Source: an uncultured Chlamydiae bacterium (GTDB taxonomy: Bacteria; Chlamydiota; Chlamydiia; Chlamydiales; Parachlamydiaceae). Taken from it: DNA of 64,000 nucleotides. Shown here piece by piece: positions 739 through 48,209 of the stretch (within the stretch, counting starts at the first letter, position 1; every line of letters starts with the position of its first letter). Both the position numbers and the translations under genes were made by a program. The notes below the pieces were generated by a model, which was not told the origin of the DNA, searched no databases, and was given only the letters and a program-made list of their open reading frames with translations. The DNA is taken from positions 1,312,001 through 1,376,000 of the forward strand of contig CAVWGN010000001.1 of assembly GCA_963754655.1 (NCBI GenBank). The letters are read 5' to 3'.

Positions 739-1512
739 ATGAAAGGAAAATTAACGTTTTTAGGAACAGGGGGATCGGTAGGTATTCCCGTCATTGGCTG
801 TTCATGCGAGGTTTGCCATTCTAACGATCCATTGAATCAACGACTGCGCCCTTCTGTGCTTTTGCATGTAGGTCAGCGGCAATTTTTGATTGATGCAGGA
901 CCCGATTTTCGCATGCAAGCTCTAAGGCATGGAATTACCAAGTTAGATGGCCTCTTATTGACACATGCTCATCACGATCATACAGCTGGAATAGATGATT
1001 TGCGCCCTATTTACTACCGGCGACAGACTCCTTTGCCTGTGCTTTTGTCATCTGCAACCGCTCAAGAGTTGCAGACGCGCTTCTTCTATTTATTTCAATC
1101 TAACGATGAGACATTTATTTCTCGTTTCCGTTTACAAGTGCTTCCAGACCAGGCAGGATCAGTGATGTTTGAAAATCTTTTGATTCAATATGTGACTTAC
1201 ACACAAGGCAACATGTTGGTGAATGGATATCGTATTGGAGATTTGGCTTATTTATCTGATATCCGCCATTTTTCACCTTCAATTTTTGACGCTTTAGAAG
1301 GAGTGCGCTATCTTATTATTAGCGCTTTACGCTATACTCCTTCTCCATTGCATTTTTCAGTAGATGAAGCAATTGATTTTGCTAAACAATTAAAGGCAGA
1401 TTTAGTTTGGTTGACTCATCTTTCGCATGACCTCGAACATCACCAAACCAGTGCCTATTTGCCTGCTCATATACATTTAGCTTATGATGGATTAGAAATT
1501 GATTTTGACTGA
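739..1512 (+). CDS. MBL-fold metallo-hydrolase (PhnP-like)
   Basis: FLGTGGSVGIPVIGCSCEVC, LIDAGPDFR, THAHHDH metal motif, THLSH, LAYDGL; start moved to ATG 739 because the longer ORF overlaps the upstream gene. Confidence 0.9.
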   Translation: MKGKLTFLGTGGSVGIPVIGCSCEVCHSNDPLNQRLRPSVLLHVGQRQFLIDAGPDFRMQALRHGITKLDGLLLTHAHHDHTAGIDDLRPIYYRRQTPLPVLLSSATAQELQTRFFYLFQSNDETFISRFRLQVLPDQAGSVMFENLLIQYVTYTQGNMLVNGYRIGDLAYLSDIRHFSPSIFDALEGVRYLIISALRYTPSPLHFSVDEAIDFAKQLKADLVWLTHLSHDLEHHQTSAYLPAHIHLAYDGLEIDFD

Positions 1513-1518
1513 GGTTTT

Positions 1519-2844
1519 ATGGAAAACGAAACTGTTACACGTGATGAATCCCATTTAGTTTTACATCAAACGCATGAGATTCCAACGGCTCTTTTAGTCT
1601 CCACTTATCATGGTTCAACACAGCGCAACATTTGCGAAGAACATTTAGAAGAATTGGAGTTGCTTGCCAAAACGTACGGGGTAGACACTGTGCATAAGGA
1701 AGCTTGTAACATCCGCAAATTCAATGCTTCTATTTATGTTGGTAAGGGAAAATTAGAACAACTTGTGCAAATTGCAAATGAAAAGAAAGTAGACTTAGTG
1801 ATTTTTGATGATGAAATTACCCCTGCTCAGCAGAGAAATTTGCAGAAGGCGTTTAATCGAAATGTCATGGATCGCACAGAAATTATTTTAGGAGTATTCG
1901 CGCAGCGCGCCCAGACCAAAGAAGCGCGCTTGCAGATAGAACTTGCACGGATCAAATATGAAGCACCTCGTTTAAAGAGAATGTGGACTCACCTTTCTCG
2001 TCAGCAAGGGACATCAGGGTCAGGAGGGGGAGGAGGAGCCTATTTGAAAGGAGAGGGGGAAAAGCAGATTGAAATTGACCGCCGCATCCTTAAACGCAAA
2101 ATTGATCAGTTGCAAAAAGAAATTCAAGAAGTGCGGGCCCATCGCGAGACTCAGCGCGTTTATCGTCTTCGCTCAGAAATTCCCGTTTTTGGCATTATTG
2201 GCTATACAAATGCTGGAAAATCGACTTTGCTCAATTCATTGACAGATGCAGGCGTTTTTGTGGAAGATAAACTGTTTGCCACGTTAGATACCACGACACG
2301 AAAGTTTACACTTAAAAATAATCAAGAAATTTTACTCATCGATACTGTAGGTTTTATTCGCAAATTGCCGCACTTGCTTGTGGCGGCTTTTAAAAGCACG
2401 TTGGAAGAAGCCATTGAGGCAGATATCTTATTGCACTTAGTGGATGCCAGTCATCCAATGGCTGAGGAACAAGCCGCCACAACGTATGAAGTTTTAAAGG
2501 AATTAAATGCCGGAAACAAGCCCATTGTGACGATTTTGAATAAAATGGACAAAGCTCCAAATCCAAGCCTGATTCATCGTTTACGCATGACTTATCCAAA
2601 AAATCTTCAAATTTCAGCACTGACTCATCAAGGATTTGATGAATTACAAGACATGATGATTCAGGAGTTAAGTCGTCAGCGTCAGCTGATAGAGGTGCGT
2701 ATTCCGCAAAGCGAATATGCAATTGTCAGCGAAATTATGAGAGTGGGCCATATTCTGCACCAAGAATATGAAGAAAATAATGTCGTATTGAAGGTAGATG
2801 TTCCAGCCCCCTTGGCAAATAAATTATCACCTTATCGCCTATGA
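1519..2844 (+). CDS. hflX: GTPase HflX
   Basis: GYTNAGKSTL, FATLDTT, DTVGFI, NKMD G-motifs; AQTKEARLQIELA and glycine-rich GEKQIEIDRR segments. Confidence 0.97.
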   Translation: MENETVTRDESHLVLHQTHEIPTALLVSTYHGSTQRNICEEHLEELELLAKTYGVDTVHKEACNIRKFNASIYVGKGKLEQLVQIANEKKVDLVIFDDEITPAQQRNLQKAFNRNVMDRTEIILGVFAQRAQTKEARLQIELARIKYEAPRLKRMWTHLSRQQGTSGSGGGGGAYLKGEGEKQIEIDRRILKRKIDQLQKEIQEVRAHRETQRVYRLRSEIPVFGIIGYTNAGKSTLLNSLTDAGVFVEDKLFATLDTTTRKFTLKNNQEILLIDTVGFIRKLPHLLVAAFKSTLEEAIEADILLHLVDASHPMAEEQAATTYEVLKELNAGNKPIVTILNKMDKAPNPSLIHRLRMTYPKNLQISALTHQGFDELQDMMIQELSRQRQLIEVRIPQSEYAIVSEIMRVGHILHQEYEENNVVLKVDVPAPLANKLSPYRL

Positions 2845-42732: not shown

Positions 42733-43887
42733 TGCATATGGATTCTACAAACGAACTGGTGGAAGGGACTATTAGCCCCTATTTTCATTAATGTAACTTC
42801 AGTTGTTGTTGTAGGGAGTATTCTCATTGGAACGACAACTCTCATGATGGACACGAGTCTATATCTTTTACTTAAAGAATATTCTAATTTTTATTTCTGG
42901 ATTTTAACTTTTTTGATTACTACTCTTATTACAATTAGTATGAAGGATTTGCACTCACTCTTTATTGCGAAACACACGGGTTTGTAAAACCAAACTTATT
43001 CTTCCTTCTTTTTCTCGCATTTGGTTAGGTTTAAATCCTGCAAATTTACTTAGCGTTGCTATTGCTTTTTTTCCATATTTGCCAATGAATAGGATAAGCA
43101 TGCAGAGTCTTTTTACTAAAAATATTTGACCAAACATGCTATTTAGCTTGTTTACTTATTGAGCATTTAACTTTTGAATTTTGCAAGTATCTCTAAAGTA
43201 TTCAAGATCACGATCTTCAATATAAATTATCCTTTTAATTATGGTATGCTTTTGTTAGTGTAACTAAAGCTCTATAAAATTTTTTTTGAATCAATGTTTA
43301 AATTTAAAAAGGAATTATATGAATGTAGGAAGTTTAACTAGTCATAATTTCAGTGCGGAGCTAATAGCACCTTCCACTTCTAAGGCAAAAAAGATTAAGA
43401 AAAAATGGACGGCGGCTGAAAATACTCAATTAACTCAGTATGTTCAAGAATTTGGAAAAAATTGGAAGAAAATTGCACAGCACATGGTTGATAAAGATCC
43501 TACTCAATGTAATCTTCATTGGATACGTGAATTGAAGCCTACCCTCACAAATGGAAGAAGATATGGAAAATGGTCAGCAGAAGAAAATGAGCAATTGAAA
43601 AAGCTCGTGAATCAGCACAAGAAAAATTGGGTAGAGATAGCCAAACACATTCCCGGTAGGACGAATAATCAGTGCAGGGCACATTATGAGAGGCTTTTAA
43701 GACCAGATATCAATCATGGACTTTGGACAGCAGAAGAAGATGAGCGATTACAGGAAGCCGTTCAACGCATCGGATTTGGCGCGTGGGGGCAATGGAGTGC
43801 CATTGCAAATGAGTTGCCTAATAGACTCGCTTTTCAATGCTCAAACCGCTGGTACACATTGAATAAAAAATCCAATAAGCATACTAG

Positions 43888-44725
43888 GGAGCGTACCTAA
43901 AAGATTAACCATTGTATAATACAAGCGATCGTCAACATTCCTGCATAATTTTGAGCTTTCATTTCGTATCTTATTCCAATACGCCTAAATCGTTTTATAA
44001 ACTGAAAAAAATTTTCTACCAAGCAACGCTCTCTGTAGATATGTTTATCATGTTCAATTAGTTCAGCTCTTGATACTTTGCTGGGTATGACTGCTTGACT
44101 TCCCATCTTTTCTATAAAATTTCTGATTTCATTTGAGTCGTAAGCTTTATCAGCTATAACATTTTTTGGATTTTTTCCACTGAGTAAAAGCTTCATTTGA
44201 GTGCTCTCGTGTACTTGACCTTCTGTCAAGATAAAATCAATACAACGACCTAATCCATCTGTTACTGCATGAATTTTTGTGGTTGTTCCGGCCCTTGATT
44301 TTCCCATGGCTTCTTCGGCTTTTTTTTTATCCTACAAGCATCTTGATGCGCTTCAACAATTGAGCTGTCTACAGAGTAATTTTCTTCGTCAATTTCATCT
44401 TTTAAAGCTTGCCAAATCGTTTGCCAGATTCCAGCCTTTGTCCATCGATTAAAGCGATTATAACATGTGCTCCAAGGACCATACTTGGGTGGTAGATCCC
44501 TCCAAGCGGCTCCTGTTCTTAAAATCCAAATAATGCCTTCTAAAATCTTACGATGAGGCCGACTTGGTCTGCCCCAATATCCTCGTTCTTTTGGCAATAA
44601 AGGTTTTATTTTTATCCATCTTTCATTAGTTAATACTATCCTACTCATTCAAATTTCCCCCTTGTTTTATCAGAGAAAATTATAAATCATAAGAGTTATT
44701 ATTTTAAATCTTTTAGGTACGTTCC
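43888..44725 (-). mobile_element. IS5-family element (IS427-like), 838 bp
   Basis: TIRs GGAGCGTACCTAAAAGATT / GGAACGTACCTAAAAGATT; CTAG on both sides where copy 2 has a single CTAG. Confidence 0.95.
43897..44648 (-). CDS. IS5-family transposase in two ORFs joined by a probable -1 frameshift
   Basis: OrfA GIIWILRTGAAWRDLP..YGPW..YNRFNRW..VDSS; OrfB TTKIH, ADKAYD, YRERCLVENFF; A9G run at 44319-44328; OrfB is in the -1 frame. Confidence 0.9.
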
Positions 44726-45582
44726 CTAGAAACGAAACAGATGATAAGTCTGTTAATTAAAAAAATTTAAAAAAATTTAAGAAAGATGTGAATCCTGATT
44801 CTAAATTCACGATATACCCTCCTATTCTGAATCCCACAAACTTGAATCAATCTGCCTCTCAAAAAGTTGAGCAGTCGCTAGGTTCTATTGATTTTAATTC
44901 TACTTTTCAACCCATGGAAAGTCTTATTGATGGAGATTTTAAGTTTCCACAAACTGATCAATATTCATTTCTTAACAATCATACTTCTCAATTATTATTG
45001 AATTCGGACGAAGCTATTCCTAGCCATATAAATTCTATACAAGAGGATTTGACGACTTCTTCAATCGGGCAGTTAGAAGCTGTTTTTATGAATTTTAATA
45101 ATCCGCAAGCGGTGACTTCACCTACTGATCACTCTATTTTAATCCCTGCAGGTGAAGATTTGACTACGCCACCATTTAATCAAGACATAGAACCTAATGA
45201 AATCAATGATTTTATGAATCAAATTTTAATAGATTCTATGACATTCGATTTGGATAGACTGGTTGAAAATCCCTGCGATTGGTGATCCATAAGCAGGTCA
45301 ATGTTGACTTAGTGGACTTTTGGCAAATTTTAGCCACCACTCATCAATAAAAAAAGCCATAGGTGTTAAAATTGTGTTAGAAGGAAATGAACCTTAACTC
45401 TTAATTGTGACTATTTTTTTAAATTGATTTCTATTCCTTGTTCATTTAATATGCTTTTTTTGATTCAAAATTATGATCTTTAATTCAATATAATTATCTT
45501 GTTAATTTTGTTTATTTTTTTTTGTTTTAAATAAAAATTTATAAATTTTTTTTAATTAATATTAAATTTAAAAAGGAATCAT

Positions 45583-46785
45583 ATGAATGTAGGAAGTTTA
45601 ACTAGTCATAATGTCAGTGCAGAGCTAATCGCACCTTCCACCCCTAAGGCAAAAAAGGCTAAAAAAAAATGGACGGCGGCTGAAGATGCTCAATTAACTC
45701 AGTATGTTCAAGAATTTGGAAAAAATTGGAATAAAATTGCACAGAACATGCTTGATAAAACTCCTGCTCAATGTAGTTGTCATTGGATACGTGTATTGAA
45801 GCCTAGCCTCACAGATGGAAAAAAATATGGAAAATGGTCAGCAAAAGAAAATGAGCAATTGAAAATGCTGGTGAATCAGCACAAGAAAGATTGGGTAGAA
45901 ATAGCCAAGCACATTCCTGGTAGAACAAATTATCAGTGCAGGGATCATTATGAGAAATATTTAAGAGCAGATATGAATCATGAACCTTGGACAGCAGAAG
46001 AAGATGAGCGATTAAAAAAAGCCGTTCAACGCATCGGATTTGGTAAGTGGGGGCAGTGGGGTGCCATTGCACAGGAGTTGCCTGGTAGAGTAATGTCTCA
46101 ATGCGCAGGTCGCTGGTATCATTTAAATAAAAAATCCAAGAAGCGGACTAGAAACGAAACAGATGATAAGGCTGTTACTAGAAAAAATTTAAAAAAATTT
46201 AAGAAGGATGTGAATCCTGATCTTAAATTCACAACATACCCTCCTACATACCCTATATACCCTCCTATATACCCTCCTATATACCCTCCTATATACCCTC
46301 CTATTCCGAACCCCACAAACTTGAATCTATCTACCTCTCAAAAAGTTGAGCAATCGCTAAGTTCTATTGATGTTAATTCTATTTTTCAACCAACACAAAC
46401 TCTTATTGATGGAGATTTTAACTTTCCACAAACTAATCAATATTCATTTCTTACAAATCATGATTCTCAATTATTATTGGATTCGGACGAAGCTATTCTT
46501 AGCCATACAAATTCTATACAAGAGGATCTGACGTCTTCTTCATATCTCGAGCAGTTAGAAACTGTTTTTATGAATTTTAATAATCCGCAAGCGGTGACTT
46601 CACCTACTGATCACTCAATTTTAATCCCTGCAGGTGAAGATTTGACTACGCTACCATTCAATCAAGACATAGAACCTAAAAATCAAGATAGAGAATCTGA
46701 TGAAATCAATAATTTTATGAATCAAGTTTTAATAGAGTCTGTGGAATGCGATTTGGATAAAATGGCTGACCCCCGCGAGTGGTGA
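45583..46785 (+). CDS. Eukaryote-like three-repeat Myb DNA-binding protein, copy 2
   Basis: KWTAAED..W..IA..QC..W / GKWSAKEN..W..IA..GRT..QCR..Y / PWTAEEDE..W..IA..GR..QC..RW; basic KKSKKRTR and KKFKK; PPIY repeats; acidic tail. Confidence 0.92.
   Translation: MNVGSLTSHNVSAELIAPSTPKAKKAKKKWTAAEDAQLTQYVQEFGKNWNKIAQNMLDKTPAQCSCHWIRVLKPSLTDGKKYGKWSAKENEQLKMLVNQHKKDWVEIAKHIPGRTNYQCRDHYEKYLRADMNHEPWTAEEDERLKKAVQRIGFGKWGQWGAIAQELPGRVMSQCAGRWYHLNKKSKKRTRNETDDKAVTRKNLKKFKKDVNPDLKFTTYPPTYPIYPPIYPPIYPPIYPPIPNPTNLNLSTSQKVEQSLSSIDVNSIFQPTQTLIDGDFNFPQTNQYSFLTNHDSQLLLDSDEAILSHTNSIQEDLTSSSYLEQLETVFMNFNNPQAVTSPTDHSILIPAGEDLTTLPFNQDIEPKNQDRESDEINNFMNQVLIESVECDLDKMADPREW
46237..46304 (+). repeat. 12-bp coding tandem repeat TACCCTCCTATA encoding (YPPI)n
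   Basis: About five units including variants; single-copy at the equivalent position in copies 1 and 3. Confidence 0.9.
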
Positions 46786-47084
46786 TTCACAAGCAGGTCA
46801 ATGTTGACTTACTAGACTTTTGACAAATTTTAGCCGCCACTCAATAAAAAAGCCATAAGTATAAAAATTGTATTATAAGTAAATAAAGGTTAACTCTTAA
46901 TGATTACTAATTTTTTTAAATTGATTTCTATTCCTTGTTCATTTAATATGATTTTTTTTTGATTCAAGATCAATATCGTTAATTCAATATAATTATCTTG
47001 TTAATTTTATTTTTTTTGTTGTTGTTTTTAGATAAAAATTTATAAATTTTTTTTAATCAATATTTAAATTTAAAAAGGAATCAT

Positions 47085-48209
47085 ATGAATGTAGGAAGCT
47101 TAAATAGTGATAATATCAGTGCGGAGCTTATAACACCTCCTATCTCTAACGAGAATAAGACCAGGAAAAAATGGACAGAGGCTGAGAATGCTCAATTAGC
47201 TCAGTATGTTCAAGAATTTGGAGAGAATTGGCATAAAATTGCAGAGAACATGCTTGGTACAACCCATATTCAATGTAAGTATCATTGGGTACGTGTATTG
47301 AAGCCTACCCTCACAGATGGAAGATATGGAAAATGGTCTGAAGAAGAAGATGAGCAATTGACAAGGCTTGTGAATCAGCACAAGACAAATTGGATGGAGA
47401 TAGCCAAACACATTCCTGGTAGGACAGCTTCTCAGTGCAGGGAACGTTATGAGAGGTCTTTAAGACCAGGTATCAATCGTGGACCTTGGACAGCAGAAGA
47501 AGATGAGCGATTAAAGGAAGCCGTTCAACGCATCGGATTTGGCGAGTGGGGACAGTGGGTTGCCATTGCAAAGGAGTTGCCTGGTAGAATAGCTTCTCAA
47601 TGCTCAAATCACTGGAAAACATTGAATACATCATCTAAGAAGCGTACTAGAAAAGAAGTAGATGAGTCTATTACTAAAACAAATGTAAAAAAATTTAAAA
47701 ATGTTGTAGATCCTGATTTTGAATTCAGCATACCTCCTCCTATTTTGAATCCCACAAACTTGAATCAATCTCTCCCTCAAAAAGTTGAGCAACCACTAAT
47801 TTCCATTCATTTTAATTCTATTTTTCAACCAAAGACAACTCTGACTGCTGAATATTCTAACTCTCTACCGACTCATCAATATTCATTTCTTACAACCCAG
47901 TATGCTCAATTATTGAATGCGGACAAAGTTATTCATAGCCATACAAGTTCTATACAAAGGAATCGAACGACTTCTTCCCATTTGGAGCAGGACTTAGAAG
48001 CTGTTGTGATAAATTCTAATACTCCGCAAGCAGTGGCGTCGCCTGCTGATCCCTCTAGTTTAAACCCTATGGGTGCAGATTTGACTATGCAACCGCAACC
48101 ATTAAATCAAGAGATAGAACCTGATATAGAACCTAAAAATCAAGAGATAGAAACTAATAAAGTCTATCATTTTATGATTCAAATTTTAATGAATTCAATG
48201 AAAGGCTAA
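47085..48209 (+). CDS. Eukaryote-like three-repeat Myb DNA-binding protein, copy 3
   Basis: KWTEAEN, GKWSEEEDE..GRTASQCRERY..L.P.I..GPWTAEEDE..GRIASQCSNHW; SKKRTRK and KKFK basic patches. Confidence 0.92.
   Translation: MNVGSLNSDNISAELITPPISNENKTRKKWTEAENAQLAQYVQEFGENWHKIAENMLGTTHIQCKYHWVRVLKPTLTDGRYGKWSEEEDEQLTRLVNQHKTNWMEIAKHIPGRTASQCRERYERSLRPGINRGPWTAEEDERLKEAVQRIGFGEWGQWVAIAKELPGRIASQCSNHWKTLNTSSKKRTRKEVDESITKTNVKKFKNVVDPDFEFSIPPPILNPTNLNQSLPQKVEQPLISIHFNSIFQPKTTLTAEYSNSLPTHQYSFLTTQYAQLLNADKVIHSHTSSIQRNRTTSSHLEQDLEAVVINSNTPQAVASPADPSSLNPMGADLTMQPQPLNQEIEPDIEPKNQEIETNKVYHFMIQILMNSMKG

Follow-up and report, generated by a model that had tools for sequence, protein, structure and literature searches.

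Direct binding of host DNA is rare among bacterial effectors, the textbook case being the TAL effectors, which changed both plant pathology and genome engineering. Their layout comprises an N-terminal leader, a central, variable number of DNA-binding repeats, clusters resembling nuclear localisation signals (NLS) and an acidic C-terminal tail. A conserved scaffold with hypervariable base contacts, combined with turnover of repeat number, also characterises the tandem C2H2 zinc-finger arrays of animals. The sections of a nucleomodulin review drawn on here (PMC7819608) name the TAL effectors of Xanthomonas and Ralstonia as well as NUE, a SET-domain histone methyltransferase, and SinC, which binds inner nuclear membrane proteins; Myb appears in these sections solely as a host target. 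NUE and SinC are chlamydial proteins secreted by the type III route and active in or at the host nucleus, but neither is a DNA-binding repeat protein. Myb-like transcription factors are mentioned for Legionella, Chlamydiota and clostridial endosymbionts of termite-gut protists in the relevant part of PMC10579323 (2023), which cites Gomez-Valero 2019 and Martyn 2022 for them. The subject of the present analysis is an array of Myb-repeat genes at 43319-48209 of a 64,000-nucleotide stretch (the window; positions 1,312,001 to 1,376,000 of contig CAVWGN010000001.1) from an uncultured Chlamydiae bacterium. This array forms part of a family of 14 loci in which, as judged from sequence comparison, the scaffold of the repeat is constrained and the positions equivalent to the base contacts of c-Myb are hypervariable.

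Within the window, the array consists of three paralogues arranged as direct repeats on the forward strand between hemL and nfeD, beginning with the MNVGSL of copy 1 at position 43319. An earlier sequence-only reading had described it as a tandem array of three eukaryote-type 3R-Myb mimics with the layout of a transcription factor, and most of this description is borne out. All three copies match the Pfam Myb model PF00249 in three stretches (E = 1e-41 for the N-terminal piece of copy 1, 7e-40 for copy 2 and 2e-42 for copy 3), with scores of 135-143 bits against a gathering threshold of 24.4 bits; no NCBIfam family matching copy 2 was found. The AlphaFold2 model of copy 2, built from a 31-row alignment, contains nine helices, three per repeat, with a predicted local distance difference test score (pLDDT) above 90 across residues 30-190, while confidence is low in the leader and tail and a C-terminal helix is predicted at 368-391. 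The structures most similar to this model in a Foldseek search are the c-Myb R1R2R3-DNA complex (E = 6e-9, 155 columns) and, second, SNAPC4 of the mini-SNAPc (E = 2.4e-8, 165 columns, root-mean-square deviation 3.2); a sequence search of the PDB also places c-Myb (1h88, E = 1e-23) and SNAPC4 (E = 6e-22) at the top. The remaining parts of the proposed layout, namely the leader, basic clusters flanking the Myb domain and an acidic disordered tail, are likewise present. In copy 2, the Myb repeats lie at about residues 29-83, 84-134 and 135-187 and the basic block at about 183-212; the tails of copies 2 and 3 have net charges of -22 and -9, and 45-46% of their residues are S, T, N, Q or P.

The part of the earlier description that does not stand is the assignment to the 3R-Myb type. 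These are true eukaryote-type tandem Myb repeats, sharing their fold and repeat spacing with c-Myb R1R2R3 (1h88) and SNAPC4 (7xur, 7zwc) at about 33% identity over 155-165 aligned columns, and both the aromatic core and the Q-C pair of helix 3 are common to the chlamydial repeats and these proteins. However, orthology with c-Myb was rejected because the base-contact residues of c-Myb are not kept, the best sequence alignment is off by one repeat and SNAPC4 is equally close or closer. At the position of K128, copy 2 has Y or S, and at those of K182 and N183 it has R/D or A/G, in either repeat register. In that alignment R1-R2 of c-Myb stand opposite repeats 2-3 of copy 2, whereas Foldseek aligns all three repeats. 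The largest paralogue in the genome, with 13 repeats, matches c-Myb with E = 5e-33 and SNAPC4 with E = 1e-36, and a Tyr at the third aromatic position is common to the middle repeat of the family and one repeat of SNAPC4. The alignment with SNAPC4, the large subunit of the snRNA-activating complex (SNAPc), which has 4.5 Myb repeats and regions for SNAPc assembly, covers the Myb region only, and the regions of both c-Myb and SNAPC4 outside the Myb domain are not present in the chlamydial proteins. Also unlike these relatives, the chlamydial genes are bacterial and reach 3 to 13 repeats through amplification of a single repeat type.

The description of an array of three, while accurate for the window, understates the extent of the family. 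Searching the whole genome (a 3.12 Mb contig and a 35-kb contig, with a guanine-cytosine (GC) content of 38.8%) with PF00249 yields 82 matches, of which 81 pass the cut-off, and the family amounts to 14 loci at six separate chromosomal sites: 11 genes with open reading frames (ORFs) of 306-825 amino acids (aa), two genes split by insertion sequences (ISs) and one decayed remnant. Seven of the genes are clustered some 100 kb upstream of the window and have 13, 8, 8, 9, 6, 3+2 and 9 repeats; the largest encodes 825 aa, and that with 3+2 repeats is split by an element encoding a serine resolvase and an OrfB_IS605/Cas12f1-like TnpB protein (IS607-like). Outside this cluster are the three window genes (three repeats each), three dispersed genes (5, 6 and 3 repeats) and the remnant (one repeat). 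Within this species-specific Myb family, the window genes represent the branch with three repeats.

Members share a common layout, in which the leader and a basic cluster are followed by a distinct first repeat, 1 to 11 middle repeats of 50-51 aa, a distinct last repeat carrying a short insertion, a basic block and a tail. The leader motif is present 14 times in the genome, on each occasion in this family, and the leader lacks a hydrophobic signal peptide. The last repeat is followed by a pair of conserved basic clusters, separated by about 15 residues, in a block that includes invariant residues. The tails are net acidic (-3 to -22) and rich in S, T, N, Q and P, with a conserved hydrophobic-acidic motif at their end in most members.

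Variation among the repeats is concentrated at a small number of positions. The alignment comprised 45 of about 47 middle repeats, taken from genes of the large cluster and from one of the dispersed genes, two having been removed by a length and motif filter. The base contacts of c-Myb (K128, K182 and N183, supplemented by E132, N186 and S187, according to the part of PMC2673439 used here) were mapped through the PDB-search alignments to repeat columns 34, 37, 38, 41 and 42, giving an a-priori set. By entropy, these columns rank 1, 3, 5, 11 and 2 of 51, the most variable being column 34 (3.24 bits), followed by 42, 37, 51 and 38. Their mean proportion of nonsynonymous differences (pN) is 0.446, a value reached by none of 20000 random five-column sets, and there are 42 distinct five-residue contact combinations in the 45 repeats. 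W2, W21 and Y40, by contrast, are invariant in 45/45, several other scaffold residues are also invariant, and the Q-C pair that opens helix 3 is conserved. As judged from this alignment, the repeat is a constrained scaffold with hypervariable contact-equivalent positions. Estimates of nonsynonymous (dN) and synonymous (dS) divergence by the Nei-Gojobori method give dN = 0.656 and dS = 0.572 for the contact columns (dN/dS = 1.15) and dN = 0.12 and dS = 0.318 for all other columns (dN/dS = 0.38); the ratio of dN at the contact columns to dS over all columns is 1.95 (bootstrap 1.70-2.19). By these estimates the scaffold is under purifying selection. The same concentration of variation is observed within the window, where 12/15 contact-equivalent columns vary between the copies, against 47/145 other Myb columns (Fisher one-sided p = 4.7e-4).

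These rates also bear on whether the genes are no more than relics of an old gene transfer, decaying and without present function. This view would be in keeping with dN/dS values of 0.8-1.1 between the window copies (for copies 2 and 3, 0.83 overall, 0.30 in the leader, 0.79 in the Myb domain and 1.08 in the tail, a fast rate of protein evolution), with the splitting by ISs of copy 1 and of a gene in the large cluster, and with the reduction of one locus to a remnant. Yet eleven ORFs are still open although simulated neutral change nearly always closes the frame: with random substitution at the observed scale, the ORF of copy 2 stays open in 57/2000 runs at 60 changes and in 2/2000 at 120. This implies that selection still keeps the frames open. 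Given in addition the low dN/dS of the scaffold columns and the conservation of the leader, basic block and aromatic core, it is highly improbable that the family consists of relics.

The reading preferred here, which seems probable though far from certain, is that these are type III-secreted, nucleus-imported DNA-binding proteins with paralogue-specific specificity, acting on host transcription through their acidic tails as effectors (nucleomodulins) of a Parachlamydiaceae symbiont. The analysis establishes the identity and fold of the domain, the architecture of the family, its residence in a bacterium, hypervariability at particular positions of a constrained scaffold and the presence of type III core genes; secretion, nuclear import, DNA binding, an effect on transcription and the identity of the host are inferred. 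The genome encodes core genes of a type III secretion system, with those for SctU and SctV adjacent and both over NCBIfam cut-offs, and the unstructured, family-specific leader could direct the proteins through this system. The pair of conserved basic clusters may act as a nuclear import signal, after which the 3 to 13 Myb repeats would lie along host DNA with their third helices in the major groove. The acidic disordered tail and C-terminal amphipathic helix would then recruit or disturb the host transcription machinery. Arrays would grow by tandem duplication of the 51-aa middle repeat, and the divergence of paralogues mainly at base-contact positions would lead each to read a different host sequence.

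Several points weigh against this interpretation. Local dS at the contact columns is also high (0.572), leaving dN/dS there at just 1.15, so that hypervariability is evident and positive selection unproven; furthermore, gene conversion among repeats makes pairwise dN/dS estimates unreliable, and the high dN/dS throughout copies 2 and 3 could also be obtained by relaxed constraint. The consensus of the middle repeat is nearly charge-neutral overall, and R2 of c-Myb is more basic. As evidence for an NLS, basic clusters on their own are weak. Finally, several members are damaged, two being split by ISs, one having a shortened last repeat and two lacking the C-terminal motif.

The proteins could instead be secreted SANT-like binders or decoys, associating with histones, chromatin remodellers or the partners of host Myb and SNAPc proteins, in which case the variation in helix 3 would track host proteins. 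Weak, sub-threshold Pfam matches to the SANT_DAMP1_like, Myb_DNA-bind_7 and Rap1 families point this way, as do the very acidic first helix of the middle repeat and the presence among the solved relatives of SNAPC4, which belongs to a multi-protein complex, and the spliceosomal CDC5L/CEF1. It is difficult to reconcile with the variable columns being those that contact bases in c-Myb, with a basic helix 3 (R31 never varies, and columns 37, 41 and 42 most often have K or R) and with the top-scoring solved relatives being DNA-bound Myb domains. A purely protein-binding role of this kind is accordingly considered unlikely.

The family resembles the TAL effectors in its bacterial type III context, its leader, its central tandem repeats in variable number, with few variable residues that would set specificity, its NLS-like basic clusters and its acidic tail. 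Membership of that family was nevertheless rejected, since the length and type of the repeat differ: there is no homology, and the 50-51-aa, three-helix Myb units contrast with TAL repeats of 33-35 aa with a two-residue variable site; the resemblance is confined to layout and the pattern of variation. A TAL repeat reads 1 bp, whereas a chlamydial Myb repeat would probably read about 3 bp, by extrapolation from c-Myb R2R3; TAL effectors also target plants, while the likely target of the chlamydial family is a protist. The C2H2 arrays are an analogue in their pattern of variation, but differ in fold and in being the host's genes rather than those of a symbiont. Each 51-aa repeat might recognise about 3 bp through four or five hypervariable helix-3 residues, making the family modular DNA readers with host sites of approximately 9 to 40 bp that would be retargeted by repeat duplication and changes in the contacts. 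This extension of the preferred reading is doubtful.

Features of the window and of the other sequences discussed are listed in Table 1.

Table 1. Positions of the genes, mobile elements and repeats described in the text, in window coordinates unless another sequence is indicated
Feature	Position	Strand	Remarks
hemL-type aminotransferase class III gene, 433 aa	41431..42732	+	left flank; Pfam PF00202, E = 2.6e-70
Copy 1 (W1), N-terminal piece	43319..43887	+	leader, basic cluster, three Myb repeats; cut at codon 190; PF00249 in 3 stretches
IS5-family insertion sequence, 838 bp	43888..44725	-	inverted repeats, CTAG duplication, two transposase frames
CTAG on either side of the element	43884-43887 and 44726-44729		
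Transposase frames of the element	44648-44262 and 44307-43897	-	overlapping
Copy 1 (W1), C-terminal piece	44730..45285	+	acidic tail; same frame as N-terminal piece; in-frame TAA at 44758-44760
Copy 2 (W2), 400 aa	45583..46785	+	intact; leader 1-28, Myb repeats, basic block, acidic tail
12-nt tandem repeat, 6 copies	46236..46304	+	encodes YPPI x6; Tandem Repeats Finder score 110
Copy 3 (W3), 374 aa	47085..48209	+	intact; same layout as copy 2, to which it is 62% identical
NfeD-family membrane protease gene, 761 aa	48432..50717	+	right flank; Pfam NfeD1b_N, NfeD_membrane, NfeD
Seven-gene Myb cluster	1211906-1228919 of the contig (1407-18423 of contig stretch 1210500-1230000)		
Further copy of the IS5-family element	511-1262 of its stretch		about 670 bp from the dispersed five-repeat gene
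Splitting of the 3+2-repeat gene by an IS607-like element	13749-15514 of contig stretch 1210500-1230000		
Myb ORFs in other Parachlamydiaceae	973-1989; 1420-2613 (-); 1078-2223 of their stretches		three loci examined

Amplification in place, as the earlier reading had proposed, is supported by the 87-90% identity of the tandem units, flanks included. The copies nevertheless differ in state, and copy 1 is a pseudogene with two lesions, an IS insertion and an in-frame TAA. An AGGA is located 8 nt ahead of its ATG. The alignment of its DNA with copy 2 ends at 43887 and restarts at 44726, the two pieces overlapping by four bases of copy 2, and its C-terminal piece has 90% DNA identity to copy 2 from 46148 onward; one TAA is found within the match to copy 1 by tblastn. 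The intervening element has near-perfect terminal inverted repeats and a transposase matching the Pfam models DUF4096 and DDE_Tnp_1, and both of its frames exceed the cut-off of NCBIfam NF033580 for the IS5 family (140.9 and 133.4 against 110 bits), spanning model positions 2-115 and 119-258. With transposase, inverted repeats and short target duplication all present, it is assigned to the IS5 family. There are 23 full-length copies in the chromosome, six of them, including this one, being 100% identical, which implies that the insertion into copy 1 is recent and that the element is native to this genome. A further copy is observed about 670 bp from the dispersed five-repeat Myb gene. As for the other copies, the YPPI tract is confined to the tail of copy 2, being not found in copies 1 and 3 on alignment; the PPxY-like strings it produces resemble ligands of WW domains.

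The presence of this element, together with the nature of the flanking genes, is informative as to whether the array is host eukaryotic DNA misassembled into a bacterial contig. The products related to that of hemL are named glutamate-1-semialdehyde 2,1-aminomutase and derive from a Parachlamydiaceae bacterium (79% identity), Candidatus Protochlamydia phocaeensis (74%) and Protochlamydia sp. (72%); judged by these relatives, the genome is chlamydial and of the Parachlamydiaceae, and the organism a chlamydia of the amoeba-symbiont type. Pfam confirms both neighbours: the gene in the hemL position encodes a class III aminotransferase, and the other is an NfeD gene with three domains. In favour of misassembly are the domain itself, which is typical of eukaryotes, and the GC of the array (0.30-0.40), slightly below that of the flanks. 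However, bacterial genes adjoin the array on both sides, the main contig is of 3.12 Mb with the family at six separate sites, and two different types of bacterial mobile element, IS5-family and IS607-like, lie inside members, one of them with 23 chromosomal copies. The genes are uninterrupted by introns, and both their GC (0.35-0.38 across the family) and GC at third codon positions (GC3, 0.29-0.34) are within one standard deviation of the values for the 1211 long ORFs of the genome (0.397 ± 0.034 and 0.328 ± 0.047). Contamination was consequently rejected on the grounds of chromosomal spread, mobile elements, GC3 and bacterial flanks, in agreement with the sequence-only reading, and misassembly is scarcely credible. 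No RNA run was listed for the array; the single run listed, from a soil metagenome and containing 7% of the sampled words, yielded only short contigs, some of which match stretches of copy 1, copy 3 and nfeD exactly, with the IS5-family element at a depth of 21; as no contig bridging the array is found among these, the run gives no independent support for its contiguity.

The distribution of the family was studied among related genomes. With copy 2 as the query, matches are found in 0/3 congeners and 4/72 other Parachlamydiaceae genomes, at 27-39% identity and within the Myb region; the PF00249 model has matches in 10/40 relatives, with at most nine per genome. At the three loci examined, the Myb ORFs of other Parachlamydiaceae have a different layout, with a basic disordered N-terminus bearing KRK-type clusters and 3-4 C-terminal Myb repeats, and occur in one to a few copies, as opposed to the expanded, variable-repeat family described here. 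Myb proteins may therefore recur within the Parachlamydiaceae, while, on these searches, the expanded family is lineage-specific. The interval between hemL and nfeD is itself variable within the genus, and among this genome and the three congeners the Myb array is found there only in this genome. One congener has an interval of about 2.3 kb, with a semialdehyde dehydrogenase (asd-like) gene and a DUF202 gene; another has about 29 kb encoding glycosyltransferases, an ABC transporter, a leucine-rich repeat protein and a beta-lactamase-fold protein; and in the third hemL and nfeD are on different contigs.

For the donor, which the earlier reading had supposed to be a protist host, the search was extended beyond these genomes; the closest proteins in a word-indexed search are from metagenomes (36-39% identity), followed by those of fungi and plants. 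The three closest metagenome proteins are arrays of 5-8 Myb repeats, and their helix-3 residues also differ between repeats. The large protein collections did not yield copy 2, copy 3 or the other paralogues, although the hemL product found itself, so that the silence of these searches on close relatives is weak evidence. As a lead only, a look-up in the Atlas gave eukaryotic Myb clusters alone, all below 0.9 (Parabasalia, Ascomycota, Bacillariophyta, Ciliophora and Streptophyta). For the tail of copy 2 (residues 200-400), a phmmer search of 1.84 billion representatives retained the tail of copy 1 (a 165-aa ORF) as the only match; three others, of 10 to 13 stretches each, were set aside as looking like low-complexity sequence.

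A function inside the bacterium, as nucleoid-associated or regulatory proteins comparable to the chlamydial histone-like proteins, has also to be considered. PF00249 is not strictly eukaryotic, a control search having matched Bacillus subtilis, and the genes carry bacterial expression signals: as the earlier reading had indicated, they are intronless with purine-rich sequences resembling Shine-Dalgarno sites, located in upstream regions that are conserved within the family. A promoter consensus scan was uninformative (14 sites against 22.8 expected by chance). Nevertheless, the family is not found in any of the three congeners searched, and neither hypervariability nor free loss to ISs would be expected if it were a core regulator; a eukaryotic target is also a better fit for the acidic disordered tails and paired basic clusters. 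An intrabacterial role is thus quite improbable, and an action in the host nucleus continues to be favoured.

The occurrence of the Myb domain in chlamydiae is known in outline, but this family, its variable repeat number and the hypervariability of its contact sites appear to be undescribed in searchable papers. No description of an expanded chlamydial Myb-repeat family was found in that literature, in which pairings of 'MYB' with chlamydial genus names proved to be growth medium or reference lists. On a conservative reading, the family represents a lineage-specific effector expansion with recent births, in the form of tandem duplicates, and recent deaths through IS hits. A chlamydial symbiont has, in this interpretation, taken a eukaryotic transcription-factor domain and multiplied it to 82 repeats in 14 loci, with variation at contact-equivalent positions. 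Should the proteins be both secreted and DNA-binding, they would be the first Myb-based nucleomodulin family found in the searchable literature, and might provide a new repeat scaffold, with rules of specificity derivable from 45 or more natural variants. If the modular recognition considered above were also to hold, they would add a third form of repeat-coded DNA recognition to those of TAL effectors and zinc-finger arrays, one that rewrites the transcription of protists. On the preferred reading, the family would also lead directly to those host genes that are under the control of environmental chlamydiae.

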